IMG/VR virus record: IMGVR_UViG_3300025120_000076
Location: 1-52,422 of that record
Reading direction: 5' to 3' (one strand)
DNA length: 52,422 bases
DNA from: a virus
Taxonomy: Duplodnaviria > Caudoviricetes
Shown here: positions 3,195 to 52,029 of the stretch, piece by piece
How the letters are laid out: each line of letters begins with the position of its first letter
Position numbering within the stretch: position 1 is the first letter of the stretch
Translations under genes and position numbers: made by a program
Notes under the pieces: generated by a model
Seen by the model: the letters and a program-made list of their open reading frames with translations, nothing else
What the model was told of the DNA's origin: nothing
Database searches by the model: none

Positions 3195-3384
3195 CAGGTT
3201 GGGATATATGGGCACTGCTTTCATGATGACAAGCCCACATCTACTGCCTGATGAAAGAGGTATGATTACATACATAATAGCTGGTATAATATCTATACCA
3301 CAAGTGTTTGTAGCAAAACAATGGAACTTAGTATTTGTTAATTTAAACGTAGCAATAGCCTACATAATATTATATTTTTCGTAA
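3106..3384 (+). CDS. small membrane protein (about 3 hydrophobic segments)
   Basis: Hydrophobic stretches LGYMGTAFMM, ITYIIAGIISIPQVFV and LVFVNLNVAIAYIILYF. Stop overlaps the nrdA ATG. True start may be 3136 or later. Confidence 0.65.
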   Translation: MKKQSTHLKRMWLKNLVKQRKLSPTERLANRLGYMGTAFMMTSPHLLPDERGMITYIIAGIISIPQVFVAKQWNLVFVNLNVAIAYIILYFS

Positions 3385-5081
3385 TGTGGAATAATGAATG
3401 GAAAAAAGGTATTGATTACCCTGAGTGGGGAGATACCGAAGTATATAAAAAAACAATATCAGGAGGATATTTATATCATGAAGAAACACCAAAACAAGCG
3501 TACGAAAGAGTTTCTAAAACAGTTGCGCGAAGATTACAAAAGCCTGAAATGGCAGAAACTTTTTTTGAATATATATGGAAAGGCTGGTTATGTCTTGCCT
3601 CGCCTGTTCTTAGCAATACTGGTACTGATAGGGGTTTGCCTATTAGTTGCTTTGGTATTGACGTCGCTGATTCTATATATGACATAGGAACTAAAAATTT
3701 AGAGATGATGCTACTCGCTAAACACGGCGGTGGAGTTGGTATCGGTATAAATCAAATAAGACCCGCCGGGGCAAACATAACAGGTAATGGAACAAGTGAT
3801 GGCGTTGTGCCGTTTTGTAAAATATACGATTCAACAATACTTGCCACTAATCAAGGATCTGTCAGACGAGGAGCTGCATCAGTTAATATTAATATTGATC
3901 ACGCCGATTTCGATGAGTGGCTCGAAATACGTGAACCCAAAGGAGACGTCAACCGTCAATCGCTTAACCTGCATCAATGCGCTGTTGTTGGCGATAAGTT
4001 TATGCGAAAGCTTGAACAAGGAAATGGAGAAGCTAGAAGACGTTGGGGACGACTACTTCAAAAGCGTAAAGCTACTGGAGAACCTTACATCTTATTTAAA
4101 GGGAATACAAATAAGAATAACCCAAAAGCATACAAAGATAATGGGTTAAAAGTACATATGACAAATATATGTTCTGAAATTACATTACACACAGATGAAT
4201 CACACAGTTTTGTTTGCTGTTTATCTAGTTTAAATTTAGCAAAATATGAAGAATGGAAAAACACTAATATCATTTATGATGCTATCTGGTTTTTGGATGG
4301 GGTACTTGAAGAATTTATCCAAAAAGCTAAAAGTAAAATTGGCTTTGGAAACTCCGTTAGATCAGCAGAAAAAGGCCGTGCGCTTGGGTTGGGAGTATTG
4401 GGCTGGCATACCTACCTCCAAGAAAAAGGATTACCATTTGAAGGGTTATCTTCCCAGTTTGAGACGCGCAGAATTTTTTCTCAGATTAAGATTGAGTCTG
4501 AACGCGCTTCAATGGATTTGGCAGAAATTTATGGAGAGCCTTTGTGGTGTGCTGGAACTGGCTTTCGCAATACTCACCTACGTGCTGTTGCTCCTACTGT
4601 TAGCAATAGTAAGCTCAGTGGAAATGTTTCGCCAGGTATTGAACCGTGGGCTGCGAATGTATTTACAGAGCAGAGTGCAAAGGGGACTTTTATTAGGAAA
4701 AACCCAACACTCGAAAAAGAATTAGAAAAACTTAAATTAAATACAAAAGAAATATGGGACAAAATTTTAGCAGACGGTGGTTCGGTTCAAAATATAAAAG
4801 GTTTAGAAGACTCTACGAAAGAAGTATTTAAAACATTTAAAGAACTTAATCAATTAGAATTAGTAAGACAAGCAGGTATAAGACAACAATATATAGATCA
4901 ATCTGTTAGTTTAAATTTAGCTTTCCCAAGTACAGCAACTCCTAAGTGGATTAATAAAGTACACTTCGATGCTTGGAAAAAAGGTATTAAAACTTTATAC
5001 TACGTTAGAACAGAATCTGTTTTGCGTGGCGACATAGCTGACCATGCCATGAGTGAAGACTGTGTTGCGTGTGATGGATAA
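3384..5081 (+). CDS. nrdA: class I ribonucleotide reductase alpha (R1) subunit, short form without ATP cone
   Basis: SPVLSN, LPISCF, GGGVG, TNICSEI (catalytic N-x-C-x-E), VCCLSS, APTVSNS, DQSVSLN, TLYY and C-terminal CVAC. Confidence 0.96.
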   Translation: MWNNEWKKGIDYPEWGDTEVYKKTISGGYLYHEETPKQAYERVSKTVARRLQKPEMAETFFEYIWKGWLCLASPVLSNTGTDRGLPISCFGIDVADSIYDIGTKNLEMMLLAKHGGGVGIGINQIRPAGANITGNGTSDGVVPFCKIYDSTILATNQGSVRRGAASVNINIDHADFDEWLEIREPKGDVNRQSLNLHQCAVVGDKFMRKLEQGNGEARRRWGRLLQKRKATGEPYILFKGNTNKNNPKAYKDNGLKVHMTNICSEITLHTDESHSFVCCLSSLNLAKYEEWKNTNIIYDAIWFLDGVLEEFIQKAKSKIGFGNSVRSAEKGRALGLGVLGWHTYLQEKGLPFEGLSSQFETRRIFSQIKIESERASMDLAEIYGEPLWCAGTGFRNTHLRAVAPTVSNSKLSGNVSPGIEPWAANVFTEQSAKGTFIRKNPTLEKELEKLKLNTKEIWDKILADGGSVQNIKGLEDSTKEVFKTFKELNQLELVRQAGIRQQYIDQSVSLNLAFPSTATPKWINKVHFDAWKKGIKTLYYVRTESVLRGDIADHAMSEDCVACDG

Positions 5082-6514: not shown

Positions 6515-6940
6515 TTATATATTACAATACTCTTCATAAGCGTTAAAACACGGACAGCTTTTCGCTGAAAATTCGTTGTGCCCATGTATCGTTGCTTTTG
6601 GATGTAGTTTTTTTAATACTCTTAATAACTCTAATAAAGTTGCTATTTGATTAGGCGTTCTAGTATCTTTAGCTATCCAGTCTCCATCAGATCCTCTTTC
6701 AGCTTCAACTCCACCAATATAACAAATACCTATACTACCCTTATTGTGATTTTTTACATGAGCACCTGTTTCTGTTATAGGTCTACCATATTCTATCATA
6801 CCATCTAAACCTATTACGTAATGATAACCTATACCTCTCCACCCTCTTTTTTTATGCCATTTGTCTATAGTAGCTGCAGATATCTCTTTACCTTCTTGTG
6901 TGGCAGAACAGTGTATTATTATTTTATCTATTGCCCTCAT
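6515..6940 (-). CDS. N-acetylmuramoyl-L-alanine amidase endolysin (T7 lysozyme / Amidase_2 type)
   Basis: Motifs IIIHCSAT, IGYHYVI, GAHV, SIGICYIGG, IHGH and KSCPCF supply the Zn ligands. Confidence 0.93.
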   Translation of the reverse strand: MRAIDKIIIHCSATQEGKEISAATIDKWHKKRGWRGIGYHYVIGLDGMIEYGRPITETGAHVKNHNKGSIGICYIGGVEAERGSDGDWIAKDTRTPNQIATLLELLRVLKKLHPKATIHGHNEFSAKSCPCFNAYEEYCNI

Positions 6941-9900
6941 TATATACCGTGTTTTTCTGCTAATTTTTCTAATCTAAATCTAGGCGTTTTTATATTAGTT
7001 TCTTTTTCTACTTTATATATACTATCTCTAATTTTTTGATTTGGTAATCCCCTTAAAACTTTTTGCCTAAAATTCTTATATTCTTTTTCTTTGATCTTAT
7101 TTTCTTCCCTAGTTTGCTTAGATTTTATTTTACCTTCTTCTTTTCTACGAGCTTTAGATTCAGTTTTCATTAAATCATGCTCTTCAACTCTAGCGTTAAC
7201 ATCCCACTGTCTCCAACCTAAACCTAAAGCTATACGTTGGTAGTTAGTATTACGAGTATCTAAAGCCTCTGTCAACGCGTTTACTTCATCAAATAATCTA
7301 TCTAATGGAAGATTTAAAGTAGCTGAACTTAATTCACCAAGCATATCATATGAAGGACTAAGTTGAAATTTACCATCTATCATTACGTCAAAACCTCTTT
7401 CAGCTATAACGTCTTTATCAAACTTTTGAGTTTGTAAAAAGTTATTAATTTTTCTTATTTTACTACCTATTGGTGGAGATATATTTAAAGCAGCAATTAA
7501 TATTTGTGCATTTTCTCTATTAAACTCTGTTTGCTCTTGTTGCTTGTTATATTCTAATAAAACATTTTTTACAGTAGATACAACCGCCCCAGCTAAACCA
7601 GAACCTCTAAGCATCGTATCAACCATGTTGTTGCCTACTCTACTTACTTTGCCATCTAATTTATTTTGTTTTCTTTCAAGATATTTATCTCTTTCTTTGT
7701 CTGTTTTAAAATCTTCTTCTTCATCTTCAAAACCTGGTAGCATTGCAAACAAAGCATTTTGTAATGTAGAAAATATTAAATTTTGCACAAACCCATAATA
7801 AACTATTTTACTTAAGTTTGTTTTTCTATCACCTCTATTATTTATTAAATCTTGACCAGCTTTTTTCATAAGCCTAGTGTATTGCATAGGGGTATTTTGA
7901 AAAGCTAATACTAATCTACCTAGCACGCTAGACTGCTGCCCAGATATAAGCATTGGATCTGCTGACTGTTGTGTTTCGTCTGATATAGCACTGAAGTCTG
8001 CAAATGCTTTTTTCTCTGCAGCATCTTGTTCAAATCCTGCTTTTTTATATGTGTTTATTCTATTTCTATAAAAGGTTGCACCACCTGTTGCTATGGCTAT
8101 ACTATCAGCAATTTGAGTAGGGGTAAATCCTAATTTTAATATATAAGAAATAACACCTTCCATGCCATTGTTCTTGGCAGCTTGAGCTATTTCAGCTTCT
8201 TGTATATCGCTTTGTAAACCTGATCTTCTTTGTTTTAATTTATCTGAATTAAACAGCTTAGCAACATCACCCCAGTATTGAGGTTGATTAGCAAAAGCAA
8301 TCCCAGCTTTCAATGGATTATTATCAGACCAATTAACGAAGTTTACAGAAGACATCAGCTGTAGTAACGCTGATCTTCTATTGAAGAACATTATAGCTCC
8401 AGTTGAATTATTAACCCAATTATTCCATCTAGTAACAATACGACCTTGACCGGTTGGTTTATTACTACCTGTTTTCATTCTATCTATAATATTAATTAAA
8501 GACTCTTTAACTCTAAAACCATATAAAGCTTCTACTTTATTTAGATTTTTATCACTAAATATTTGATCAACATTATCTGTAAATTCTTTTAAAAACTCTG
8601 CTCTATTTATATCTCTACCTACTCTACTTAAATCACCTATTATAGTTGTTCCGTCCCAAGCAGCTGTTGGTTCTACAAAATTATCTAATCTAGTTATAAG
8701 TTTTACTCCTTCTGAAAAAGCAACGAGATCTACATCTTTACCAAATTTTTTAACAATATCTTTTTGATCTGTTTTAGAAAGCCCAGGTATTTCAAAGCCT
8801 TCTTTATTCCATAAATATATTCTAGTAGCCTCGTCTAACGTATATTTTGTTCCTTGAAACTTTTTATTTAAACCTTTTCTTATTATAGGGTGAGCTTGTA
8901 ACAAAGCACTGTAATCTTTTCTTATTCTTTGCTTAGCTATTTCCATAGCATTAACACCTTTCATGTAAGGTTTAATAAGAGCTTTGTCAAAAAATGCTTG
9001 ATCAGCTTCACCCTGTTTTCCTTTACCAGCAAACGTATACATTGTTAAACCTCTAAAATCATCAGCTGATGGAGGAATAAAAAATGCAAACCTTTTTTGG
9101 TTACGACCTTTTCTTCTAGCGTTTATATCAGAAAAATTAGCTTTTGCTTTAACACCTTTATTTCTTTCTATCATTTTATTAAATTCACTATCTAATGATT
9201 TAGCGAATTTAACTCTAGCTTGTTGCACTCTAGATTTTACATCTAATACGTTGAATATTTCTTTAACAGCTTTTACATTTTTAAGAGCATCATCTGCAAA
9301 ATAAAAATCATTATATCCTTCTGCATATTTATCTACAAACCAATCTGCTTTTGCTTCTGGTCTTCCATCTGCTAAACCTGTTATATTTTTTAAAGGTATA
9401 CTAAGACCTAGTCCTTCTAAAAATTCTTTAATATTTAAAGCTGCAGCTTGAGGTCTTGCTGTTAATATAAATAAATCTTCAGATCCTCTTTTGTCTTGTA
9501 TTGTTTTAGCTACTTCAAATAATGGACCTTTTTTACCATCAATAACTTTATTAAATTGTGTAAAATCAAACTCAGCACCTTCGTCTAGCAAAGCTTGAGC
9601 ATCTGTAGCAAATTCTGTAGCAGATATTTTCTTACTACTACCATCAGGCATGTTAACTATAACCATGCTATTTGACTGAGCCAATGTATCGTCAAAATCA
9701 AATACTCTAGCTTTCTTTTTATTTTTAGAATACTTAATACTATTTCTAGCATTAGTCATAGCTTTATCAGCCTTGTTATTTTTTACTACAACTTTCTTAG
9801 CATCTGGTTTAAAAGTTTCATTTTCTCTATTAGTAACATCTCTATTAAACAACGCTTCGTCTTTTATTTCTCTTAATGTTTTATTACCAGAGAATAAATC

Positions 9901-12900
9901 ATTCATTAAAGTTTTCTGTAATTCTACAGGCACTTCATTTGTTTCAAAAAAGTACTCAGCTAAAGTTTGTTTAGTAGGTATATACATCATGCTGGATAAA
10001 TCTATACCAGCTTCACTTAATCTTATTGTAGATAATAAACCTTGGTCTAATTTTAATTTACCATCTTTATAAAGCTCAACACCTTTGTAGTAAGCATCAG
10101 GCATAGATGTTTTGAAATCTATATCTAATAAATCGTTGTTATCTAAATCTATCCAACCTTGCATATACGATGCTTCAACTATAGGCCAAACTTCATTTAC
10201 CCTACCATCTTTAGCGGCTTGAGTTAACATAGTACCTATGTTATTTTGAGGCTCAGTGTGTTCTTCAATACCCTTAACACCTCTTAATGGATTACCATCT
10301 GCATCTACTTGAACTATAAGAGCAGGCGCTAAAGCTCTATTAGGCGCGTTTTGAGAATTAGTAGCAGCTGAAGCTATTTCATCAAACACCCAAATGTCTT
10401 TAGGATTATCTTTTAAATAAGCTTCTGCAGCAACATAAAAATCTTTTAATACATTTAACTTAGCTTTTTCTTTTGCTACATAACCAGGTTCAAAAATAGA
10501 CTTAGCATAGGCGTTAGTTATTTTTCTATCTTTAGTAATAGGCGTTCTACGTATATCAAATTGTCTTCCAACGTTCTTAACACCTTCTTTAAATCTAGCT
10601 ACTACTCCGTATGGAGATCTTGTTTCACCAAAAACCAAAGCGTTTTTAAAATACGAATTATATCCTGGAAATCTTTCAGAAAAATTATTTAAAGTTCTAT
10701 TAAAACCTTGTATAACAGTTTCACCTTTAAAACTTCTAACACTTTCAGGTAGCGCCGCATCTCTATCGTATGCTCTGCCTGGCTTACCTTCTCTTTGTTT
10801 TGTTTTACTTACCTTATCAAAAGATCTTACTTGTTTTGTAGATTGCTCTACATAGCTAGATGTTTGTTTAGGAGATTTAGGTTTGGCTTTTGCAGCCATA
10901 ACTCTAGACTTACTTGAAGCAACGTCAGCTAGTATTTGTTTAGTTGGCTTAGCCGTTTTTACAGGTGACTGCTTTACTTTATCACGAGCAATAACGTTAG
11001 CCGTGTTTTGGCCCTGTAATTTAGCAGCACCTTTTAATAGTTGACCAATGTTTCTGTTATATAAATTTAATTCACCAGGAGGTGTAATACCTAATTCTGT
11101 TTTAAATTGTTCTACAACTTCAGCTGTAGGATTTTTAAATTCTTCTTTCAGTTCCCAAACCGCCGGTTGTGACGTTTTACCTTTAGATCTTTTACCTGTT
11201 TTATTATAAAAATAATTAAGTAATCTATTGTTTAAACCTAAAGCTCTACCCAATACATCTCTTGATACTTCTATGTTTTCACCTTGTTCATCTATAGTTG
11301 CAGACGAACTACTAACATTTTCAGGTGGTAATATTCTTATAAAGTTTCTAGCGTTTTGTCCTGATCTAAAAAACTCTTGTATATTACCAGCTTCTGATTG
11401 TTCTGGTATACCATTTACTATTTTTTTAGCGTACGTTAAGTTTTTCTTTGGATCAGTAATTTTAGCTTCTGGGACATTAAATATTTTAGCCGCAGCTTTA
11501 CCTGCATATCTATCAGAAACCTCTTTAAATGATAACCCAGGTATCTCCTCAGTCTTTATATCAACCACAGATTCAACTTCAGCTTTATTTACTTTGTCAA
11601 AATTTAATGGATTAATTCTAGTTTCTTTAACTATTGATTTTTCTTCTATAACAGTTTCCTCAGCTACAACTTCTTTTGCTTGTGGAGAGTCTAGTCTATC
11701 AGCTTCACGAGACAATCCTTTAACTTCCTCATATATCTGCTGTTGCTTAGGTCTCATGTTGTTATCTACAAATGTAGAAAACTTAGCTGTATTAGGATCA
11801 AACCTTTCTACTATACCTGGTAAAAATTCTCTAGCAGCAGACAATACATCTTCTCTTCTAAAATCACCTTTACGAGTATCATACTTTAATGCGTTTAAAG
11901 CTAGTAAATCAAATTGATTTAATAAAGCTTGATCTGCTTGTGCCACTTGTGAAGGTTGACTTGATGGAGATTTTTTTATTTGAACTAGCTCTTCAGGTGA
12001 CAAGTTGTCATAGAAAGATTTAGATTCTTTAACATTTGAATCATCTTTTATTTTATATTCTCTTTTAACTAAATCACCTTCTGCTCGTTCAGTAAATAAT
12101 TTTTCCTGCGCTTTTGTTAGTTTACCTTTTTCTAAACTTGTATTATAATCTTTAATAAAATTATAAACATCCTCAGCCTTATTAAACTTAATATTTTTTA
12201 ATCCTGCGTTTTGTAAAAATCTTCTTATTATATCTCCTACTTTAGTAAAAAAACCTTGGTTAAATTTTATATCACCAGTTTGTATAGCACCAGAGAATAA
12301 TGTTAAAACTTCCTCCATTTTTACAGCTTCAGGATCTGCTTTATACTGTTCTAGTCTAGCAGCAAACTCGGTATTTTCAATGCCTTCAATTTTAAACAAC
12401 TCTGTTTTTAATTCTTTACCTAAATTTATAGCAGTACCTTTGCTATTTTTTAAAGTCTTAAATAAAAGTGCATGTAAAAACTCATGATTAGCTACATCTA
12501 CAGCTAGGTCTTTAGCTGATTGTTCTTTGTTTATAACTATAGTTTGTTCTCCAGTTTCATTGTTTTGTAATATAAAACCTTGTTCACCAAAAGATTTTTT
12601 ATCAACATCTTTAAACTTAGGATCTTTAGCTAGCTCCTCTGCTTCTTTAGTATTTTCTACTGTAAAAACAGTTAAGCCTTCTACGCCTTCTGATAAATTA
12701 GTTATTGTTTCTGTAGATATTGTTAATTGATTTTCAGCGCTAATCTCACCTAATCTATTTTCTATTTCTACTAATTTTTTTCTTTGGGTATCAACAAGTG
12801 CTTTATTGTCTCCGGCTTTTTTTATTTCTGCTCTAATTAAAGAACTCTCTTCTAAAAGTTGAATTGTTTCTTTTAATAAAGGTCCTTGTATTTTTAAATT

Positions 12901-29185: not shown

Positions 29186-31561
29186 TTAAATAAGAGATTG
29201 TTGCTGTTCAAAATCAATAGGCAATAAATCATTTTGTCTTTGATCTATCATTTGACTTTGTTGACTACCTTCCATTTTAATTCTTTTATCTTTACGATTT
29301 TCAATTTCTTGTTCTTTAACCGTACGTTTATTAATATCTAATTCAGCTAGTTGTCTATCGTATTCAAACTGCTGAGACATTAAATGTTTTTTACCTTCTA
29401 ATTCAACCTGCATTCTCTGTATTTCAAATTGAGATTTAGCATTTTCTAGATTAACCTTTTGCTCTGTTATTGCTTGTTGTTTTTGAACTTCAGCTAAAGC
29501 AGCTTGTTCATTTTGTTGAGCATTGGCCTGCGCTTGCGCTTGTATGTTAGCCCTAGCATTATTTGCTTCTCTAGCTAATTTTTGTTTACGCTTTTGTTTT
29601 AATAATTGATTTGCTAATTTAAGATTTTTTATTTGCCTAACATCTATAGCATCTTCTAAATCTATACCTCCTGACTGTAAAGCTACTTGTATGTTTTGTT
29701 CTAGCTGAGCTTTAGCTTCATCATCTGGTTCTAATTCTAAAAATATTCCAAAATCATGTAGGTTTAAATAACTAACTTCTTTTAAAGTTTCAACATTATA
29801 CAATGATATACTTTCTATTAAACTATTTGCTGTTAGTGGAAAATCTAAAACATCTGCTAACTTTAAAGATATGTTTTCACATACACGTAAAGCTAAATAT
29901 AAACTAGCGTTATTTATGTGTTTAGTAGCTATGTTTGATTGATTAGCCGCCATTTTAGCTAAACCTACTAAAGCATCTTTATCAGGCAAGCTACCATCTC
30001 TAGCTTCATTTAATCCGGTCACATCTCTTATCATTTGTAAATAATATTGATAAGTTTGTATTAAAGCTCCTAGCTTAGCTCCTGACGCTGATGTTTGTAG
30101 TTCTTGAATAGGGATTCTTCCTCTATTAGGATCACCTTCTTGTGTCAACGATCTACCAACAATACTACCTGTTTGAAAATACATGTTTAATGCTTCGGCT
30201 GGATTATAGTTTGTGCCATTACCAAGATCAACTTCTGCTAATCCGTCCATGTCTAAAAATACTCCATCAGGTACCATGCGTGATAATACTTGTTGCATTT
30301 TTAAATGCGTAATTTGTATCATATCAGCAAAACCAGTACATCTACTGACTATAGATTCTATTCTTCCTTTGTACATTCTTGGCGCTACAATAGTATAGTT
30401 CATTTCAACTTTGGTAGTATCAGCATATGGCCTAGTCATGTTTTCAGCTAACTCCCATTTTAAAATTGTATTAGTTCCTAAAACTTTAGCGCCACTATAT
30501 AAAACTTCTATACTTCTTCCTACCTTATCGTAGGTGTCTGATGGTGGAGGATTAAACTCATCAGTTTTTTGAATTATTTTTTCTAATCCATTTTCTGTTT
30601 TCTTTAACTTAAATACTTGGTTCATGTAAGTTTTATATTCAAAATATAATACTTGAACTGTATTGTTATCATAATTTCCCCAACCAGTTATATATTGTCT
30701 GTTACCTGGCATTTCCTGTATTCTCTGTAATTCTTCATTAGAAATATCTGGAAATTGCTTTTTAAGCTCAGGTATAGTTATTGATTTAACTTCTCCAACA
30801 TAATATATATCTTCAAAGTTAGGATCTTCTGTATAAGAATATATTAAATAAGCTGGATCTACATAATCTAATGTTATGCCATTTGCTTTATTAAAGTTAG
30901 TTTTGGCACAAGCTATTCCACATACTACTAAATCATGATTTAATCTTCTTTTAGTTAATTCCCATTTGTTTTGAGATAACGTTTGAGATATAGCTTCCTC
31001 TTCAGCTATTTCAACAGCTTGCTTATATGATAATTGCATGTGAAGCTCTAAGTCTTCTTTTGTTTTAGGTAACTCATCTTGCGGAACATTAGACTGAGAC
31101 ATATTTATACCTAATTGTTGTTGAGCTTTTTGTATTTGAGCTGAGGCAAACATATCTCTAGCCACATTAGTAGCGTATTGAGTTCTTTCTTTTACTGACT
31201 CAGGATCTTGAGAATACGCTTTAATATCATACTCTTTACTTGAAATACCATTAACTACTATATCAACAAATTTTGATAATATAGGGACAGGTTTCCAGTC
31301 TAAGTTTAAATAGCTTAAGTCACCATTAATAGATAATTCATCTTTATATTTTTGAACAGGTTGTTCTCCTCTAGCGTATAAACGTAGATGATGATAATTA
31401 TTCCAGCTTGTTAAATATCGGTTACCGTTAGTTCTACCTTGATTAAACCATTCTGTCTCAATAGCTGATGCTACTTGTGAACCATATTCCCAGGAAGCTT
31501 TTTCTGCATCCGGTACTACCTGACTCGGAAAAGCGCTATTAGAGTTTGTGTATAAATTCAT
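29186..31561 (-). CDS. portal protein
   Basis: 791 aa directly after the terminase. Motifs PILSKFVDIV and IRDVTGLNEARDG, with a Q-rich C-terminal coiled-coil barrel as in podoviral portals. Confidence 0.8.
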   Translation of the reverse strand: MNLYTNSNSAFPSQVVPDAEKASWEYGSQVASAIETEWFNQGRTNGNRYLTSWNNYHHLRLYARGEQPVQKYKDELSINGDLSYLNLDWKPVPILSKFVDIVVNGISSKEYDIKAYSQDPESVKERTQYATNVARDMFASAQIQKAQQQLGINMSQSNVPQDELPKTKEDLELHMQLSYKQAVEIAEEEAISQTLSQNKWELTKRRLNHDLVVCGIACAKTNFNKANGITLDYVDPAYLIYSYTEDPNFEDIYYVGEVKSITIPELKKQFPDISNEELQRIQEMPGNRQYITGWGNYDNNTVQVLYFEYKTYMNQVFKLKKTENGLEKIIQKTDEFNPPPSDTYDKVGRSIEVLYSGAKVLGTNTILKWELAENMTRPYADTTKVEMNYTIVAPRMYKGRIESIVSRCTGFADMIQITHLKMQQVLSRMVPDGVFLDMDGLAEVDLGNGTNYNPAEALNMYFQTGSIVGRSLTQEGDPNRGRIPIQELQTSASGAKLGALIQTYQYYLQMIRDVTGLNEARDGSLPDKDALVGLAKMAANQSNIATKHINNASLYLALRVCENISLKLADVLDFPLTANSLIESISLYNVETLKEVSYLNLHDFGIFLELEPDDEAKAQLEQNIQVALQSGGIDLEDAIDVRQIKNLKLANQLLKQKRKQKLAREANNARANIQAQAQANAQQNEQAALAEVQKQQAITEQKVNLENAKSQFEIQRMQVELEGKKHLMSQQFEYDRQLAELDINKRTVKEQEIENRKDKRIKMEGSQQSQMIDQRQNDLLPIDFEQQQSLI

Positions 31562-33769
31562 TTATTCAATTATTTTTGACAATGTACCTTTATTGTTATA
31601 TTTTTTTATTCCTATATCAAAAACTTGTCTTGTAGTTTTAGCTATGGGTCTATATTTGTTTTTATTGCAAGCCATTATAGCTAAGCCAGAACTAATAGAA
31701 GCATCATGACTTGTTCTGTTATTTATGTTAAATTTAGCCCAATCTTCTAATGTTCTTTGAAGATACATTTGACCATACTCTCCATTACTTTTTATTCCAA
31801 TAAAATCTTCAATATAAGATTCTATAGCGGCAGCGTGAGCTTGTTTAATATCTTCACTTGAATTAGGTATTCCACCTATTTCTCTTTCAGTTACAGATAG
31901 TTTTATTTTATCCGGCCGGTTCATTGCAAAACCTCTATAGCCTCTTCTTTTAAAATGATATAATAATCTTGGCTTATTATTTTCAGCTAATATAGGCATG
32001 CTATAAAAAATACAAGCCATTAAAACATCTTCAAAAAATATTTCAGCAGTTTGTGGTCTAGCTATATATTCTAAGAAAAAATGATTTGCTGGCGCATTTT
32101 CCATGCTAAACTTTGTTAGCCCGTGTAGAGAACCTTTTGATCCTCTTTTATCTACTGTTCCTGATATATCATAACTATCACACCCGAAAGCACCTATATG
32201 TTCATTAGCAGGATATTTTAATCCTCTTTTTATTACAATATTATTTTGTAGGTTAAGAGGTGGTGTCCAGGTGATAAAAAATCTTCCTTTGTTATGAGGA
32301 ACAAATATAACTTTAGTATCTTTTATTCCGTTTTCCCAATGAAAATTTCCTTGTGTAACTAAATTACTATTTCTTAAATCTCCGTTCCAGTCTATTTGCT
32401 CGTATATTTTTGTTAAATTAAAAAGAGAGGCTTTTGCCTCATCTCTAAAAGCATGTTCTTCAGTTCTTGGAAATTGTCTATAAAATTCATTTAATGCATC
32501 TTGATCTGTTTTTAAACCATCAACTTCATTTTGCCAATAGTCTATAACACCTAATTTTATCTGCGTGCCATGAGCATCTGTTGTTTTTTTATTTGGAGTG
32601 TCGAATACAGGTACTCCATGAGAATCAATGTATCCCTCGTAGTTCCATTCCATAGGTATGAACAAACTATATAATCCCGAGCGAGTCTGTCCGTTGGCGT
32701 TTCTATTTGTGACATCTGAATCATAATATAATTTTTTAAAATTATCACCTCCTTTATCTAATGAATTTGAGGTTGATCCCATCATACACTTTCCAATTAT
32801 TCTACTACCTAATCTAAGTGTAGTTTTTGTAACCCTCCAGTTATTTTGAATATTATTAGGTCTTTCCCATTTACCACTTTCATCGTGTACTAAAAGCTTA
32901 AGTTTTTCTCCATCATAAGAGTTGTCGCCTGTATTTTTCCAATCGATTGTTGTGTCAAGTCCTTCAAGCTCAGCTGCTGTTTCATTAGAGTCGAGCTTTC
33001 TACGGGTAAATTTAGATGCTGGTACTCTGTAAGCAAGCTCAGTCTTGGGGCGATCCATACCGTCTTGTATTGGTTTGAAAAAAAACGGGTAGTTAACTGA
33101 TATTGGTACGACCTTATCGGTAAACATTGTTTTTGCATCTGGTCCAGATTTTGATAATATACCATATCTTGAGTCTGAATTAATGGTTGCGAGATTAACA
33201 ACCTCTCCTGAGGCCATAAATGAAAATCCTGATCTACGGTTTTTAAGGTAGCACATTCCATAGCTTCTGTAGTCTGCTTTGCAAGCTTCCCAGAAAATAT
33301 AGAATAATCTATTTGCTTCTCTAAAATCTGGTTTCCCAACATCAATCTTGGACCACTGCAAGTACATATAGTGAGTACCAGTAATGTAAGTAGCCACGTT
33401 TTTATTATAGAACCAAAAACCTTGTTCTCTTCGAAGAAATTCTTTATCAATGTAATCATACCAGTGTTCTTTAAAGTCAACCGGATATTTCTCCCAATCA
33501 AATCTCGTTTTTATTTTTTTTAATTCTTCAGGTATAATAGATCTATGCCATGCATTTTTTTCAAACTTAACTACATTATCTTTTTTTGGCAGAGCTATTT
33601 TTAGATTTTGTATTTCGTATATTTCACCTATCTCACCTGTTCTACTAATTATAATTATATCATATTTATCATTATAACCGTACTCCCACTTTTTATTTCT
33701 ATTGTTTCTTTTTAATATATTAGAATCAATGTAATTTTCTAAAACTTTATATAAGTTTTGCTTATACAT
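31562..33769 (-). CDS. terminase large subunit
   Basis: Walker A-like LKNRRSGFS, Walker B LLVHDESGK, coupling motif GSTSN, nuclease AFGCDSYD and C-terminal HDASISSG. Confidence 0.88.
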   Translation of the reverse strand: MYKQNLYKVLENYIDSNILKRNNRNKKWEYGYNDKYDIIIISRTGEIGEIYEIQNLKIALPKKDNVVKFEKNAWHRSIIPEELKKIKTRFDWEKYPVDFKEHWYDYIDKEFLRREQGFWFYNKNVATYITGTHYMYLQWSKIDVGKPDFREANRLFYIFWEACKADYRSYGMCYLKNRRSGFSFMASGEVVNLATINSDSRYGILSKSGPDAKTMFTDKVVPISVNYPFFFKPIQDGMDRPKTELAYRVPASKFTRRKLDSNETAAELEGLDTTIDWKNTGDNSYDGEKLKLLVHDESGKWERPNNIQNNWRVTKTTLRLGSRIIGKCMMGSTSNSLDKGGDNFKKLYYDSDVTNRNANGQTRSGLYSLFIPMEWNYEGYIDSHGVPVFDTPNKKTTDAHGTQIKLGVIDYWQNEVDGLKTDQDALNEFYRQFPRTEEHAFRDEAKASLFNLTKIYEQIDWNGDLRNSNLVTQGNFHWENGIKDTKVIFVPHNKGRFFITWTPPLNLQNNIVIKRGLKYPANEHIGAFGCDSYDISGTVDKRGSKGSLHGLTKFSMENAPANHFFLEYIARPQTAEIFFEDVLMACIFYSMPILAENNKPRLLYHFKRRGYRGFAMNRPDKIKLSVTEREIGGIPNSSEDIKQAHAAAIESYIEDFIGIKSNGEYGQMYLQRTLEDWAKFNINNRTSHDASISSGLAIMACNKNKYRPIAKTTRQVFDIGIKKYNNKGTLSKIIE

Positions 33770-41009: not shown

Positions 41010-41269
41010 AAAACAACGACCACATCTTGTAGTTTAATAACGTGGTAAGCTTTATTTTCTATTTCTATTTTATGACCTGAGTGCTTATCGTAAAATATTT
41101 CATCACCTACAGCAACTCCAGCCACATCATCACCCATGCTTATAATATTAGCCCTTAAATACCTAATGTCATCTTTGTGTGATTCTGCTAATAGTAAACC
41201 TCCTTTTGTTGAGGTTGTACCATCTTTTATTTTTTCTATAATTAAATTTCTACCTAGTGCTTTCATCAA
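41006..41269 (-). CDS. groES: co-chaperonin GroES (Cpn10)
   Basis: KALGRNLII, mobile loop TKGGLLL, VAVGDEIFY and IKLQDVV. Adjacent to groEL. Confidence 0.85.
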   Translation of the reverse strand: MMKALGRNLIIEKIKDGTTSTKGGLLLAESHKDDIRYLRANIISMGDDVAGVAVGDEIFYDKHSGHKIEIENKAYHVIKLQDVVVVL

Positions 41270-42824
41270 CTCTTACATTATTAATTACACAATCAGTAGA
41301 TATTATAGTAGTCGCTACGGAAGCCGCATTAATTAAAGCACTTTTAGTAACTAGTAGTGGATCTATAATACCATGTTTAACCATATTTACCATATTTCCT
41401 GTAACTACATCTAAACCTTCGCCTTTATTATTTTTTAAATGATCATTTTGCTTGTCTGTTACAACAACACCTGCATTATTTAATATTTTAAAAAAAGGAG
41501 CTTTTATAGCTCTTAATAAAGCTTTTTCTCCATTAGACTTAGATTTTAAACTATTTGAAGCGTTGAACAAGGCTATACCTCCGCCAGATACTATTCCTTC
41601 TTTTATTGCGGCTTTTGTAGCGCATATAGCGTCTTCTACTCTATCTGTTTTTTCTTTTAATTCAATATCAGAATTAGCACCTACTTTTACTATAGCTACT
41701 TTACCAGATAAACGAGCTAAACGTTTTTCTAGGTTTATAACAACGTGAGGTTTATTTTTCTTTGTTAAATCTTTTTTAATTTGATTTATAATATCTTTTA
41801 CTTCCTCACTTGTTTCATTAACTGTTATTAATGTTTTGTCACTATCAGAAGAAGCTTTAATACATGAACCTAAGTAATCAATATCTATAATACTTAAGTC
41901 ATCACCTAAATCTTCGTTTATAATAGTTGATCCCGTCAATAAAGCCAAGTCATCTAAAATAGTTTTTCTATTTAAACCATAAGCTGGAGGGTCTATAACA
42001 TTTATCTTTATATTCCCTTTCATTTTATTCATTACTAAAGCAGATAAAACAGCGTTTTCTACTTCACCTATAATCAATAAAGCTTTGTTGTTTTTTATAA
42101 CATGCTCTAGTACTGATTGTATCTGCCTAATTGAATCTACTTTTGATTCCATTATTAGCATTAGTGGATTTTCTAAATCAGCAGTGCTTTTGTCTTTATC
42201 AGTAGTAAAATTTATATGTGCAAAACCTTTATTATATTCTACACCTTCTACAATTTTAACCTCAGTGTCTCCAGTTTCAGAACCTTCCATTGTTACAACA
42301 CCTGTTTTACCAACTTCTCTAAAAGCATCAGCAATTAACTTACCTAACTCTTTATCATTGTTAGTAGATATTGTGGCTATGTTGTCAATCATTTCACCAG
42401 AAACTGGTAAACTGTTTTTTTCTAAATATTTTACAACTTTACCAACGCCGTCTAAAATACCTTTTTTAGTTATTCTTATATTAGCGTCTTTTTCTTTTGA
42501 TGAATAAACTTGATCCAATATAGCGTGCGCTAATATTGTTGCTGTTGTTGTTCCATCACCTGCTTCCCTAACTGTTTTACGAGATGCTTCTTTTAATAAA
42601 GTAGCACCCATATTTTCTATAGGATCTTTTAATATAATAGAGTTTGCAACTGTTACACCATCTTTGGTTATAACTGGGTGACCACTTGAGTCTTCCATTA
42701 TAACACATTTACCGCTGGCTCCAAGTGTGGAGCCAACAGCATTAGTGAGTTGTTCTATTCCTTTAAATACTTTAAACTTAGCTTCGTCACCAAAGCTTAA
42801 GTTCTTGACTATTGAGTCTGACAT
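41250..42824 (-). CDS. groEL: chaperonin GroEL (Cpn60)
   Basis: Motifs TLG..G, ITKDGVTVA, AGDGTTTAT, DRVEDAICATKAA, GIVSGGG and GIIDP..VT. Confidence 0.96.
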   Translation of the reverse strand: MSDSIVKNLSFGDEAKFKVFKGIEQLTNAVGSTLGASGKCVIMEDSSGHPVITKDGVTVANSIILKDPIENMGATLLKEASRKTVREAGDGTTTATILAHAILDQVYSSKEKDANIRITKKGILDGVGKVVKYLEKNSLPVSGEMIDNIATISTNNDKELGKLIADAFREVGKTGVVTMEGSETGDTEVKIVEGVEYNKGFAHINFTTDKDKSTADLENPLMLIMESKVDSIRQIQSVLEHVIKNNKALLIIGEVENAVLSALVMNKMKGNIKINVIDPPAYGLNRKTILDDLALLTGSTIINEDLGDDLSIIDIDYLGSCIKASSDSDKTLITVNETSEEVKDIINQIKKDLTKKNKPHVVINLEKRLARLSGKVAIVKVGANSDIELKEKTDRVEDAICATKAAIKEGIVSGGGIALFNASNSLKSKSNGEKALLRAIKAPFFKILNNAGVVVTDKQNDHLKNNKGEGLDVVTGNMVNMVKHGIIDPLLVTKSALINAASVATTIISTDCVINNVRVDESTR

Positions 42825-43547: not shown

Positions 43548-46500
43548 TTAAAAAGTATCAACATCAAATATTCTATATCTTATTTTTATAGATATACTTG
43601 TCAACCCTGATGGGTATGCGCCAGAGTTTTGTTTATGTATAGTAGTTGCTTTATTAACAGCGTATGTTCTACCTTGAGAACCAGAGCCAGTAGGTATATC
43701 TCTTGTATAAAATCCATAAAATGGAGCTGACCCTGATTGAGATTGATTAACTATTTCATTAAATCTTAAAGCAGGTAAAATTGACACTGAAGCACTAGCT
43801 TGGGCTAAATTTGCTTGTCTTATTTCTAGATTGTTTGATGTTGATCCAGTTGAAGAATATTTCATCATCCAATCGGTATATGTAATTACAACGGCTTTGT
43901 CAGCGCCTGGAGCTGATATTAAAGTTTGACCTAGTGTTGAATTAAGTTGCGCAAGTGTAAACGTAAAAGTAGCTTCTTGTTCGCCTCTTACAACGTTACC
44001 ATCTGGATCAACACATAATGCAGCTAGCGTATCTTGGGTTGCAGCTTGGTTATCTTGATTAGGGCTTAGAGGTCCAGTTGTTGAAACTGCTATAGCTGTA
44101 TAAGGATCAAAAGCAATTTTTCCTTCTTTTACAGTAATTTGTTTTTTACCTTTACTTACAAGGCTTACTCCGTTAGCAGCATCAAAACTACCTAATCCTG
44201 TGTCGTCATCACCCGCACATGTAAAATCAGCAGCATTAACTCCTTTAACTTGAACTTGGCTATTAACAAATAAAACTCCAGTTGATACTTCTGCTAACCC
44301 AGAATTTGAGGTTATACTTGAACTACCGTTAAAAATAGCTATTTCTCCACTTGTACCTGTACCTGTTACTGTACCTTGAGGCACACCAGATATAGCATTA
44401 TCTACATAAAGTTTATTAGCCGCATCTGTAGAATCGGTTACGGTATCAACACCTTGTATTCTTCCAGTTCCTTGTAAAAAAAGATCTCCGGAAGTTATAA
44501 TTAATCTACCTGAGGTAGTTATTGACATTCTTTCAGCAGACTCATCATTCATAAAAAAGTCTAGCGTCTCAGCGCTGCAATCAAATTTAATTGCCGCAGC
44601 TTGGTTAGTTGGATCTTGGGCGTCAATAAAAACAAGACCTGCTTTAGTTTCTGCTGTATTTTCAATTATCAAGTCTTTTGTATCACCTGATATTTTAACA
44701 TCACTACTAAATGTTTTAGCTCCCGAAATTGTTTGGGTCGTGTCTAGCGTTACGTAGTTAGTTAAACTTGGTATACTTGCATCAACATAAGCTTTATTCG
44801 CCGCATCAGTTGAATCAGACACTGTATCTACACCTTGTATCCTTCCTGTACCATCTAAAACTATTTGACCATTGCTGACAGTTACAGTACTTGAGAAAGT
44901 AGCTGCAGTTGCTGTCAATCCTTGGATTTCCATATTTTTATTAACCTCTATATGCTCACCGCCATTAGTAGTAATAAATCTCATATATAAATCAGAGCCT
45001 TGTTTTATTTCTAAAGCAGCACCGCCATTATCTATCATTAAAATATCAGAACTACTTGAAGTCAAATCAATGTCACCTATTATACCAATACCTGTGTTTG
45101 TAGTTTCAAACTTTTTAGAGTTATCGTAATAAAGCTCTATTGGCCCGTCTAGTGTGAATTTAGCATAGTTTTCTCCTAATGCTCCTGACTTTATATTAAC
45201 ACCTGTGTCTGAGTATATTTCTAAACTTCCTGGACCTGATTCTTCAATAAACGAACCAGTACCCATGCTTGAGTGAAATATTCGAAGGTCAGAAGAATTA
45301 CCAAATTGTGCTTTTACATTATCTTCTAAGTCTATACTTCCAGTCATTGTCCCACCAGCAAGTGGTAAGAAAGGCCCAAGTCCTCCACCGTGAGAGTCCA
45401 CGTAAGCTTTAGTTGCAGCATCTGCTCCGGCAGTTGGTGTCGCTAAATCATAGATTTTTTGGTCGTTCATATGTAACGGAACAAAACTATTAACTTCTGA
45501 AGCAGTTATATTAAAATACGTAGGAGAAGCATCGCTATCTCTAAAATTATGACTAACTGCATCGTAATAAGCGCTACCACTATTGTACAATTCTATATTA
45601 GCACCAGTTGGTGTTGAAAGAATAATATTATTTGAACTGGCTATACTGTTTGCTGATAATGTAATTTGACCACTATTTCCTGCTGCAGCTTCAATATTAC
45701 CTGAAAAACTCCCTGCTCCTTGGTGGCTATTCCAATTTGGAGTTTCAGTATCAGGGTTTGATGAATGGATTAAAGTACCAGTGGGTGTTCCAGCTGATGG
45801 AGTTGTAAATATTTCAGAGGTGCTTGGATTTGATATAACTTCAACTACAGGTTGAGCAAAATCATCAACGCATAACCATATTTCTACTTGACCATCACTT
45901 AATTCATATACCTCTAAATAGACGTCATCTAAAGTAGCTATATCTCCATCATATCTAAACACAAAGTTTTTAGTTGAACCTCTTCTTTGAAATATAGCTT
46001 CTTGAACCATTTGGTCATTATTACCATAATCAAACGCTCTGTCTATTTTAAATCTTGCGTACCCGTCTGTTGTATTTGTATTTTTGTAAATTTTAAACTT
46101 TTCAGCGCCTGAGCTTGATGAAATACCTATAAAAGCTTTTTGACCCGTAAGAGAATTAGAACTTATCTGTGTATTATATTTTACAGTTGTTCCAATAAGC
46201 CCACCAGTTAAAGTTCCACCAGCAAGTGGTAAGTAAGCACCACCTGTTGCGGGCGCGCCACCTATGTCACTTAGTACTTGTGCTCCAGTTCTGTATTTTA
46301 CTGTACCACCATCACTTACTAAAAATTTATCAGTATCTGATGTTGCGTTTGATATAGTTTGAAACGTACCTGTTCCTTGTACATTTACATTTGTAACATT
46401 ACTTGCTGGTGCTCCAAAGTATACAGTGCCGCCGCTTGTGCCTGTGTTAATAAAACTGGTACTAGAAGATTGAAACATTTGCAAAAAAGTAGTTCCACTA

Positions 46501-46847
46501 GCTTGCAAGGTTATACTTGCTGTAGCGTCTGAACCAACTGTAATTGATCTTCCAAACGTAGTAGCGCCACCTTTTAAATAAGATCCAGTGGATGCGTCAC
46601 TTGATATTAATACTTTGTTACTACCACCGTTAGCTAATCTTAATTCCATTGCATCACCATCAGATGCATAAAAACCAGAAGATGAACTGTAATCACCACC
46701 ACCATTTTTAGTTTGAACTAACAATGCAAAACTGTCACTTAGAGAACTATTTTGTTTGACATGAAGTGTTGCACCAGTGCTGTTTTGGCGTCCAGTCATT
46801 AACGTGTCACCTGTTACTGTAGAACTATTTTTAAGATTTATTGACAT
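43548..46847 (-). CDS. tail fibre protein
   Basis: S/T/G-rich. Repeats [YF]LPLAGGT.TG x2, DAA[NT]K.YVD x3 and GTGRIQGVDTV x2, plus QTISGAKTF. Confidence 0.8.
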   Translation of the reverse strand: MSINLKNSSTVTGDTLMTGRQNSTGATLHVKQNSSLSDSFALLVQTKNGGGDYSSSSGFYASDGDAMELRLANGGSNKVLISSDASTGSYLKGGATTFGRSITVGSDATASITLQASGTTFLQMFQSSSTSFINTGTSGGTVYFGAPASNVTNVNVQGTGTFQTISNATSDTDKFLVSDGGTVKYRTGAQVLSDIGGAPATGGAYLPLAGGTLTGGLIGTTVKYNTQISSNSLTGQKAFIGISSSSGAEKFKIYKNTNTTDGYARFKIDRAFDYGNNDQMVQEAIFQRRGSTKNFVFRYDGDIATLDDVYLEVYELSDGQVEIWLCVDDFAQPVVEVISNPSTSEIFTTPSAGTPTGTLIHSSNPDTETPNWNSHQGAGSFSGNIEAAAGNSGQITLSANSIASSNNIILSTPTGANIELYNSGSAYYDAVSHNFRDSDASPTYFNITASEVNSFVPLHMNDQKIYDLATPTAGADAATKAYVDSHGGGLGPFLPLAGGTMTGSIDLEDNVKAQFGNSSDLRIFHSSMGTGSFIEESGPGSLEIYSDTGVNIKSGALGENYAKFTLDGPIELYYDNSKKFETTNTGIGIIGDIDLTSSSSDILMIDNGGAALEIKQGSDLYMRFITTNGGEHIEVNKNMEIQGLTATAATFSSTVTVSNGQIVLDGTGRIQGVDTVSDSTDAANKAYVDASIPSLTNYVTLDTTQTISGAKTFSSDVKISGDTKDLIIENTAETKAGLVFIDAQDPTNQAAAIKFDCSAETLDFFMNDESAERMSITTSGRLIITSGDLFLQGTGRIQGVDTVTDSTDAANKLYVDNAISGVPQGTVTGTGTSGEIAIFNGSSSITSNSGLAEVSTGVLFVNSQVQVKGVNAADFTCAGDDDTGLGSFDAANGVSLVSKGKKQITVKEGKIAFDPYTAIAVSTTGPLSPNQDNQAATQDTLAALCVDPDGNVVRGEQEATFTFTLAQLNSTLGQTLISAPGADKAVVITYTDWMMKYSSTGSTSNNLEIRQANLAQASASVSILPALRFNEIVNQSQSGSAPFYGFYTRDIPTGSGSQGRTYAVNKATTIHKQNSGAYPSGLTSISIKIRYRIFDVDTF

Positions 46848-50963: not shown

Positions 50964-50993
50964 ACAGAACTACTACGTAGATGATTAGATAAT
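50964..50993 (+). promoter_or_regulatory. putative early promoter motif, copy 1
   Basis: ACA-N7-TACG-N8-TAGATAAT. Confidence 0.65.
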
Positions 50994-51203: not shown

Positions 51204-51233
51204 ACAAACTAAATACGTAACGAACTAGATAAT
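51204..51233 (+). promoter_or_regulatory. putative early promoter motif, copy 2
   Basis: ACA-N7-TACG-N8-TAGATAAT, about 40 bp upstream of ORF 51275. Confidence 0.7.
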
Positions 51234-51893: not shown

Positions 51894-52024
51894 TGAAAGT
51901 TTACTATAGCAAACTACAAGAGAGATTTATAGCTCGTGAAGAATACTTTGACGAGCTACTCTTTGGAACTCTTAATGATGAGAACTATGACAAGCCAATA
52001 CAAAACAACTACGATAAAAAGTAG
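51893..52024 (+). CDS. small early hypothetical protein (43 aa)
   Basis: Read by hand (MKVYYSKLQERFIAREEYFDELL...). TAATG coupling to the previous gene. Confidence 0.55.
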   Translation: MKVYYSKLQERFIAREEYFDELLFGTLNDENYDKPIQNNYDKK

Positions 52025-52029
52025 ATAAT
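52000..52029 (+). promoter_or_regulatory. putative early promoter motif, copy 3
   Basis: ACA-N7-TACG-N8-TAGATAAT, 11 bp upstream of ATG 52041. Confidence 0.65.

Follow-up and report, generated by a model that had tools for sequence, protein, structure and literature searches.

A possible sigma-70 domain 2-like module in a giant cysteine-free protein of uncultured marine phages

The virus record IMGVR_UViG_3300025120_000076 of IMG/VR, analysed here over its whole length of 52,422 bases (the window; 33% G+C, estimated completeness 81%), carries a giant open reading frame (ORF), P0001, whose product of 2469 amino acids (aa) contains a segment that is probably a genuine, distant relative of domain 2 of the sigma-70 factors. 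That domain is a module of three helices with which these factors hold RNA polymerase at its beta-prime clamp helices. Our tentative reading is that the segment belongs to a module which docks on RNA polymerase in the manner of sigma and so targets it, and that it is not a complete sigma factor. In the mechanism that we propose, the segment (aa ~799–884) would derive from sigma-70 domain 2 by strong divergence and form part of a polyvalent protein of several domains and no cysteine, which would be packed in the capsid and ejected with the DNA. The unit at aa ~782–1150, comprising the sigma-2-like domain, a flexible linker and an alpha/beta domain, would then dock on the core RNA polymerase of the host where its own sigma normally binds, perhaps after being freed at conserved flanking peptides by a neighbouring zincin-like peptidase. 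Such docking would draw the polymerase to the entering genome or away from host promoters.

A sequence-only reading of the window had pointed to a sigma-70 region 2-like stretch at 11690–12020. The residues that it quoted are present within P0001 at aa 809–867 on the minus strand, namely LLNQFDLLALNALKY at aa 809–823 (nucleotides 11881–11925), REDVLSAAREF at aa 832–842 and FSTFVDNNMRP at aa 857–867 (nucleotides 11749–11781); the plus-strand frame over the same interval is full of stops. The likeness itself is borne out by sequence, profile and predicted fold, but the Pfam cut-off for Sigma70_r2 is never reached. When aa 761–900 were compared by phmmer with 177,635 sequences from the PDB, the sole match at E ≤ 10 was S. 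aureus SigB (8x6g_H, E 0.023), which aligns in register over regions 2.1–2.3 with one gap. A profile made from 25 segment sequences (alignment A1) gave six matches in the PDB, five of which are sigma factors (SigB and RpoS, four entries, E 0.03–0.2), and sets the sigma pattern KFDPxxGxxFSTYATWWIRQ against RFDPetakFSTfVtknlrp in the family. Pfam Sigma70_r2 was matched by two of the 25 A1 segments, at best with E 0.0084, below the gathering cut-off (24 bits).

A word-based search recovered 34 giant homologues of P0001, among which aa 600–1150 and aa 1530–2400 are the conserved parts. With the A1 profile, 318 clusters were found at E ≤ 0.001 among 1.84 billion representatives (clusters at 50% identity), almost only from uncultured marine Bacteroidota-type phages. 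The proteins that bear the segment are nearly all giant, with at least 1800 aa in 118 of the 179 members fetched, and the short ones look like contig fragments. Two subtypes can be told apart. The window belongs to the first, in which the motif FST[FYW] is present (72 of 174 segments); in the second (73 of 174) LAAY stands in the place of FST, within '...DLIKEYDPESGVPLAAYINKFLPARAIEA'. Only one half of the family thus keeps the FD...FST motif on which the likeness had been based.

The likeness was also measured by profile–profile comparison with hhalign against a template of 28 aligned sigma ORFs; these were drawn from two genomes of Flavobacteriaceae in which relatives of the zincin domain are encoded as well. 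The A1 alignment gave P 9.4e-4, and all 174 segments together gave a score of 27.3 (P 8.6e-4) over template columns 54–120, which are the sigma-2 part. By subtype, P was 4.8e-4 for the FST segments and 2.9e-4 for the mixed remainder. A score of 26 was reached by one of 150 profiles with shuffled columns (mean 11.6, standard deviation 2.5) and by none of 150 shuffled in blocks of seven columns (mean 12.9, standard deviation 2.6), and the reversed profile scored 11.8. At the level of sequence, the likeness to sigma region 2 thus appears to lie above chance and to be reproducible but weak.

The predicted fold points in the same direction. An AlphaFold2 (AF2) model based on A1, with a mean confidence (pLDDT) of 82.4, has helices at aa 799–820, 832–840, 843–849 and 857–884, and the FDP-x3-KFSTF motif sits at the loop preceding the last of these. 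When this model was compared by Foldseek with 350,542 PDB chains, 42 of the 46 matches listed were sigma-factor entries by title and the other four were unrelated. The top match, the N-terminal domain of SigE (8b3z; E 0.46, probability 0.89–0.90, TM-score 0.51–0.62), superposes with a root-mean-square deviation (r.m.s.d.) of 3.2 Å over 72–73 columns; no match reached E ≤ 0.001. A second AF2 model, covering aa 790–1150 and based on an alignment of 28 sequences from DNA loci only (A3), reproduces the helices of the first with a pLDDT of 84.6 and adds a disordered linker and an alpha/beta domain predicted with confidence. For this model 28 of the 44 PDB matches listed were sigma entries (best E 0.24), and 18 of the 50 listed from BFVD were named phage sigma factors (best E 0.059, 'HTH domain protein'). 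Sigma domain 2 is thus the best fold match of both predicted models, which derive from different alignments (TM-score 0.5–0.6, probability up to 0.90). The linker varies in length and sequence across A3, and the alpha/beta domain, which invariably follows the sigma-like domain, found no convincing match in the PDB or BFVD by Foldseek and none by sequence. A predicted complex of the segment (A1) with a beta-prime clamp-helix fragment of a Flavobacteriaceae genome (A4) scored 0.26 and 0.19 against a mark of 0.32, without controls, and speaks neither for nor against binding.

A number of results weigh against the reading of the segment as a sigma-derived docking module, and the first group of these is statistical. 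No search reached conventional or curated significance. Pfam Sigma70_r2 gave no match at E ≤ 10 for P0001 or for the window's own segment; for 51 further members it was absent from the best 25 of 66 families, and hence at most one of the 51 matched, and only at E > 0.077. A hidden Markov model (HMM) of the host-family sigma factors (28 ORFs) did not separate single segments from shuffled or reversed ones, the maxima being 8.6 bits for segments and 8.3 for shuffled sequences. The hhalign probability across runs was just 18–40%, with the correct register and P from about 3e-4 to 1e-3, and the LAAY subtype gave no sigma signal in Pfam (8 tested) or hhalign. The Foldseek comparison places sigma domain 2 first, but all of its E-values in the PDB and BFVD are above 0.05 (at least 0.24 in the PDB). 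Moreover, fold and sequence cannot be counted as separate lines of evidence: AlphaFold works from those very sequences, and their weak signal may have steered it towards a sigma-like fold. The second group concerns the wider context. No virion proteome exists for any member of the family, and aa 604–1140 of P0001 have no DNA or protein match among 50,697 GenBank phage records; there is therefore no cultured relative among them that carries the module.

A third group of adverse points lies in the segment itself. A Pro-Gly pair (LPGI) breaks the helix that corresponds to region 2.2. The -10 element is melted and read by residues Phe427, Tyr430, Trp433, Trp434, Gln437 and Thr440 of E. coli sigma-70, by which we place the two tryptophans of region 2.3. 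The consensus of sigma-70 regions 2.1–2.4 given in the sequence-only reading ends in WWIR; FST is kept in the window, but the WW positions read N-N, and in relatives T/S/G-N, followed by an invariant P-K. Since the residues so replaced serve to open and recognize the -10 element, the sequence gives no reason to expect classical sigma function. Nor was a sigma-4 domain found in the window at E ≤ 10 with PF04545 or PF08281. A candidate for it, a helix-turn-helix-like stretch at aa ~943–963, was compared with sigma region 4.2, and hhalign of aa 905–1010 gave only P 0.045. Some Foldseek alignments do span 160–240 columns of whole small sigma factors, but with r.m.s.d. values of 13–22 Å, and with both Pfam families blank a sigma-4 domain is not claimed.

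The statistical weakness leaves room for a simpler explanation, in which the segment is an ordinary helical bundle that serves the particle or the ejection channel (packing, chaperoning or the spacing of cargo) and its sigma-2 likeness is a convergence amplified by AlphaFold. Every statistic is marginal, Pfam noise of similar strength links A1 to unrelated families (DUF2963 in 5 of 25 segments, VG15 at E 0.0058), the LAAY half of the family is without a sigma signal, and small helical domains easily reach TM-scores of about 0.5. It is harder to see why a generic bundle should make Foldseek select sigma domain 2 in 42 of the 46 matches listed, why the sequence and profile matches in the PDB should be almost exclusively sigma factors, why the alignment should stay in register across regions 2.1, 2.2 and 2.3, and why only one in 300 shuffled profiles should reach the hhalign score. 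We regard a bundle of this kind as less likely than the docking module but as a serious rival to it.

At the other extreme, the module could be a working sigma factor, delivered by the virion, that reads the motif ACG-N8-TAGATAAT and starts early transcription before phage gene expression. All of the evidence for a sigma-2-like domain applies here too. The promoter motif proposed by the sequence-only reading stands where it was placed, in three exact copies on one strand, at the right end of the window, where a divergent intergenic stretch and small ORFs lie. Allowing one mismatch, five sites are found where 1.2 are expected, and one of 100 shuffles reaches five. In a relative of the FST subtype (G029, 99% complete) two exact and two one-mismatch copies lie within 4.3 kb on one strand, and no copy occurs in Elemovirus NC_055854.1, where no sigma-like segment was detected. 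Among 170 fetched loci, which cover mostly structural regions, there was no match to the motif. The -7 element of Bacteroidota is TAnnTTTG, which TAGATAAT does not resemble, and T4 gp55 offers a precedent for a factor that has the sigma-2-like part only. A six-frame search of the window with Pfam Sigma70_r2 found no canonical sigma factor, and PF00940 found no T7-type RNA polymerase, although the latter blank means little because the control for that search was silent as well.

Two features of the segment already described tell against such a factor, namely the lack of a detectable sigma-4 domain and of aromatic residues at the positions of the melting tryptophans. The motif provides a third. 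A phage of the LAAY subtype (G035, 92% complete) has a nearly identical cluster, ACGA-N7-TGGATAAT three times within 1.7 kb, while its segment is only 12–16% identical to that of the window. One would not expect a promoter to be conserved when its reader is not; since the motif is near constant while the putative DNA-reading residues change completely, this argues weakly against the segment as its reader, contrary to what had been suggested. The motif travels with the clade of phages that have the giant protein and is probably a clade-specific promoter. We therefore consider a working sigma factor improbable. The same low standing is given to a more elaborate version, in which a self-processing capsid protein would release a minimal sigma, made of the sigma-2-like domain and a new alpha/beta DNA-reading domain, and so reprogramme host core RNA polymerase onto phage early promoters at DNA entry. 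A module that targets the polymerase is more likely than a stand-alone reader of promoters.

The docking module that we favour may first be cut free, and its neighbours suggest how. Upstream lies a zincin-like domain containing HEFLHAL (aa 622–628), in which the two His and the Glu of HExxH, together with a Glu-Glu pair 53–54 residues downstream, are invariant in 31 aligned sequences. Its matches to Pfam zincin families are below threshold (DUF3267 in 7 of 31 sequences, Peptidase_M78 in 3 of 31), and the zincin profile found no peptidase among PDB sequences. An adjacent zincin had been noticed in the sequence-only reading; the HExxH...EE domain is indeed a conserved neighbour, with HExxH at most 330 aa upstream of the segment (median distance 174 aa) in 136 of the 150 members that have enough upstream sequence, but that it frees the segment is a step we can only infer. 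The peptides VKESKSF and SKSRVMAAK (the latter at about 10885–10915, minus strand) bracket the unit of sigma-like domain, linker and alpha/beta domain. In relatives the former is replaced by ILKFSKS, IVKESRS or ISLSKST and the latter by LMFSK. By a crude regular expression, peptides of the type K-[FLE]-S-[KR]-S or x-F-S-K occur at -40 to -1 relative to the segment start in 27 of 118 full-length members and 300–400 aa after the segment in 47 of 118. We regard these peptides as candidate processing sites of the zincin-like domain, at which cleavage may occur.

Among the large genes of a minus-strand virion block the giant ORF comes last, with several PHROG 'virion structural protein' families upstream and an Amidase_2 gene next to it. 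This is a position at which one would look for a virion or ejection protein, as the label of giant ejection protein given to it earlier implied, and delivery of the product with the virion is probable, though inferred. P0001 contains no cysteine, as is the case for 97 of 118 full-length relatives, which fits a protein that crosses the periplasm unfolded and is no more than suggestive. For polyvalent proteins, entry into the host together with the DNA has been proposed (Iyer et al., 2017; PMC5512222). In the account given there, zincin-like peptidases are the commonest hub domain of such proteins and are proposed to process the polyvalent polypeptide, and the virion RNA polymerases of N4-like phages are always fused to them. 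One feature by which polyvalent proteins are recognized is found in P0001: several unrelated domains are joined in one giant polypeptide, including a zincin-like HExxH with a downstream Glu. Of a second, encoding beside virion genes combined with delivery into the host, the gene order is seen and the delivery is putative.

The alternative is that the giant protein is not packaged at all but functions, after late synthesis, in the cytoplasm of the cell that makes it, for example as a factor for late transcription or assembly. In its favour stand the lack of proteomic evidence for any member and of a match to PHROGs. The position of the gene between the tail or virion genes and the lysis amidase does not suit it, nor does the annotation of a syntenic giant gene as structural in an isolate, Flavobacterium phage elemoE 6-9C (3694 aa). 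The giant size, modular build and lack of cysteine of the product, its zincin-like hub and the variability of its cargo also match what has been described of injected polyvalent proteins (PMC5512222), and we hold a purely cytoplasmic role to be very improbable.

The positions of the module, of the other parts of P0001 and of the relevant genes are collected in Table 1.

Table 1. Features of P0001 and of the surrounding window (residue numbers refer to P0001)
Feature	Position	Strand	Remarks
Giant ORF P0001, 2469 aa	6940..14349	minus	Without cysteine; read as a polyvalent virion protein
Zincin-like metallopeptidase domain, aa ~604–780 (HEFLH at aa 622–626)	12010..12540	minus	HExxH and downstream EE
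Peptide VKESKSF, aa 773–779, candidate module-boundary or processing peptide	12013..12033	minus	Just upstream of the sigma-like module
Sigma-2-like helical domain, aa 799–884	11698..11955	minus	AF2 model and sequence evidence
Acidic linker, predicted disordered, aa 882–908	11626..11706	minus	pLDDT <50 at model residues 93–119
Alpha/beta domain, conserved, fold unassigned, aa 909–1150	10900..11625	minus	pLDDT ~90 or more
HAD-type motif I VFDFDDTL, aa 1549–1556, phosphatase-like cargo	9682..9705	minus	DxDxT at aa 1551
C-terminal core, conserved, aa ~1730–2400	7150..9162	minus	Covered by 29 of 31 homologues
Large terminase	31562-33769	minus	Upstream of the giant ORF, same strand
Portal	29186-31561	minus	Upstream of the giant ORF, same strand
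Amidase_2 gene, probable endolysin	6515..6940	minus	Pfam PF01510, E 7e-16; directly downstream of the giant ORF
ACG-N8-TAGATAAT, three exact copies, candidate early promoter element	50975-50993, 51215-51233, 52011-52029	plus	Ahead of small plus-strand ORFs

Taken as a whole, P0001 matched none of the PHROG families, and Pfam and NCBIfam gave only spurious weak matches; searches of PDB sequences returned nothing useful for the whole protein or for a profile of aa 790–1150. Downstream of the module, the sequence VFDFDDTL, taken here as HAD motif I (DxDxT) and with LTAR and FADD motifs after it, looks like part of a phosphatase cargo domain. Pfam gave no match to this HAD-type domain, and its motif is not conserved at the level of at least 90% across 109 relatives; it is therefore treated as variable cargo. 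Other cargo in relatives includes Zeta_toxin/AAA_33. A search of the ESM Atlas with aa 1531–2400 returned viral hypothetical proteins and clusters only. An RNA polymerase within the giant protein was considered and set aside, as no DxDxD motif occurs in it; PF00940 gave no match either, a result that its silent control makes uninformative.

The window derives from an uncultured podovirus-like phage related to phages of Flavobacteriaceae. Relatives of its portal, all below 60% identity, come from podoviruses of Flavobacterium, Cellulophaga, Maribacter and Tenacibaculum (87 records). A GroEL-type chaperonin gene lies at 41250–42824 on the minus strand (PHROG 5725, E 1e-136), and GroES is encoded by a related Elemovirus. 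Genes for the small and large subunits of ribonucleotide reductase (958–1926 and 3384–5081) are on the plus strand, opposite to the virion block. Two large minus-strand ORFs at 43548–46847 and 46899–49418 (1099 and 839 aa) matched nothing in Pfam and gave only marginal PHROG hits.

The closest comparison is with sigma-70 domain 2 itself (PF04542; SigB 8x6g, SigE 8b3z, RpoS 5h6x). The order and approximate lengths of the helices are the same, and the patterns L..Y..L....A.KY, ED, RFD and KFST[FY] align in register with the segment. Sigma-70 factors are free proteins of 170–600 aa, whereas the segment is embedded at aa 799–884 of 2469. It differs further in falling below the Pfam cut-off, in the Pro-Gly within the helix of region 2.2, in the replaced tryptophan pair and in that regions 3 and 4 were not detected.

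P0001 resembles the polyvalent proteins (PMC5512222) in being a giant multi-domain protein encoded beside virion genes, with a constant zincin-like domain and, among relatives, variable enzymatic cargo (P-loop kinase/Zeta-toxin-like and HAD-like). It differs in its sigma-2-like cargo. The word 'sigma' does not occur in the main text of that paper, and such cargo therefore appears not to be catalogued there; the sigma-2-like domain would add a domain type to those that the main text mentions. At the level of abstracts, no report of a virion-borne sigma-like domain was found in the literature.

Among isolates, the protein in the same slot at the end of the virion block is gp18 of vB_FspP_elemoE_6-9C (YP_010109083.1, 3694 aa, 'structural protein; DUF3293'), from a phage whose portal is 39% identical to that of the window. 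The similarity of gp18 to P0001 is weak and confined to the surroundings of HExxH (26% over 116 columns, pairwise E 0.006). With the family profiles no sigma-like segment was detected in gp18, and the genome of its phage lacks the promoter-like motif. If our reading is correct, the mechanism would be common to a whole branch of abundant ocean phages (318 clusters, none in GenBank phage isolates), and even a domain that only binds polymerase would provide a testable handle on the function of unexplained giant virion proteins.

Two further systems are relevant to function. Gp50, the giant virion RNA polymerase of the short-tailed phage N4, travels in the capsid and is ejected into the host, where it starts early transcription. 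P0001 is likewise a giant protein of a short-tailed phage with a zincin-like domain in the same polypeptide; N4, however, brings a whole single-subunit polymerase, whereas here there would be at most a putative polymerase-binding piece. Gp55 of phage T4 is a small, free, late sigma-like factor, made after infection, whose similarity to sigma factors is restricted to region 2. It binds the beta-prime clamp helices and directs promoter use without sigma-4, working with gp33 and the sliding clamp. Gp55 is thus a precedent for a sigma-2-only factor, but it is not virion cargo.

Phages are known to start infection with the host holoenzyme, with an injected complete RNA polymerase or with injected enzymes that modify the polymerase, such as T4 Alt; virion RNA polymerases are found in N4, phiKZ and crAss-like phages. 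Were the minimal-sigma version to hold, it would represent a third solution for early transcription beside virion RNA polymerases and the plain host holoenzyme. On the reading that we prefer, in which the injected sigma piece docks on the polymerase and need not read promoters, these phages would have an additional means of capturing the host polymerase ahead of all phage gene expression.

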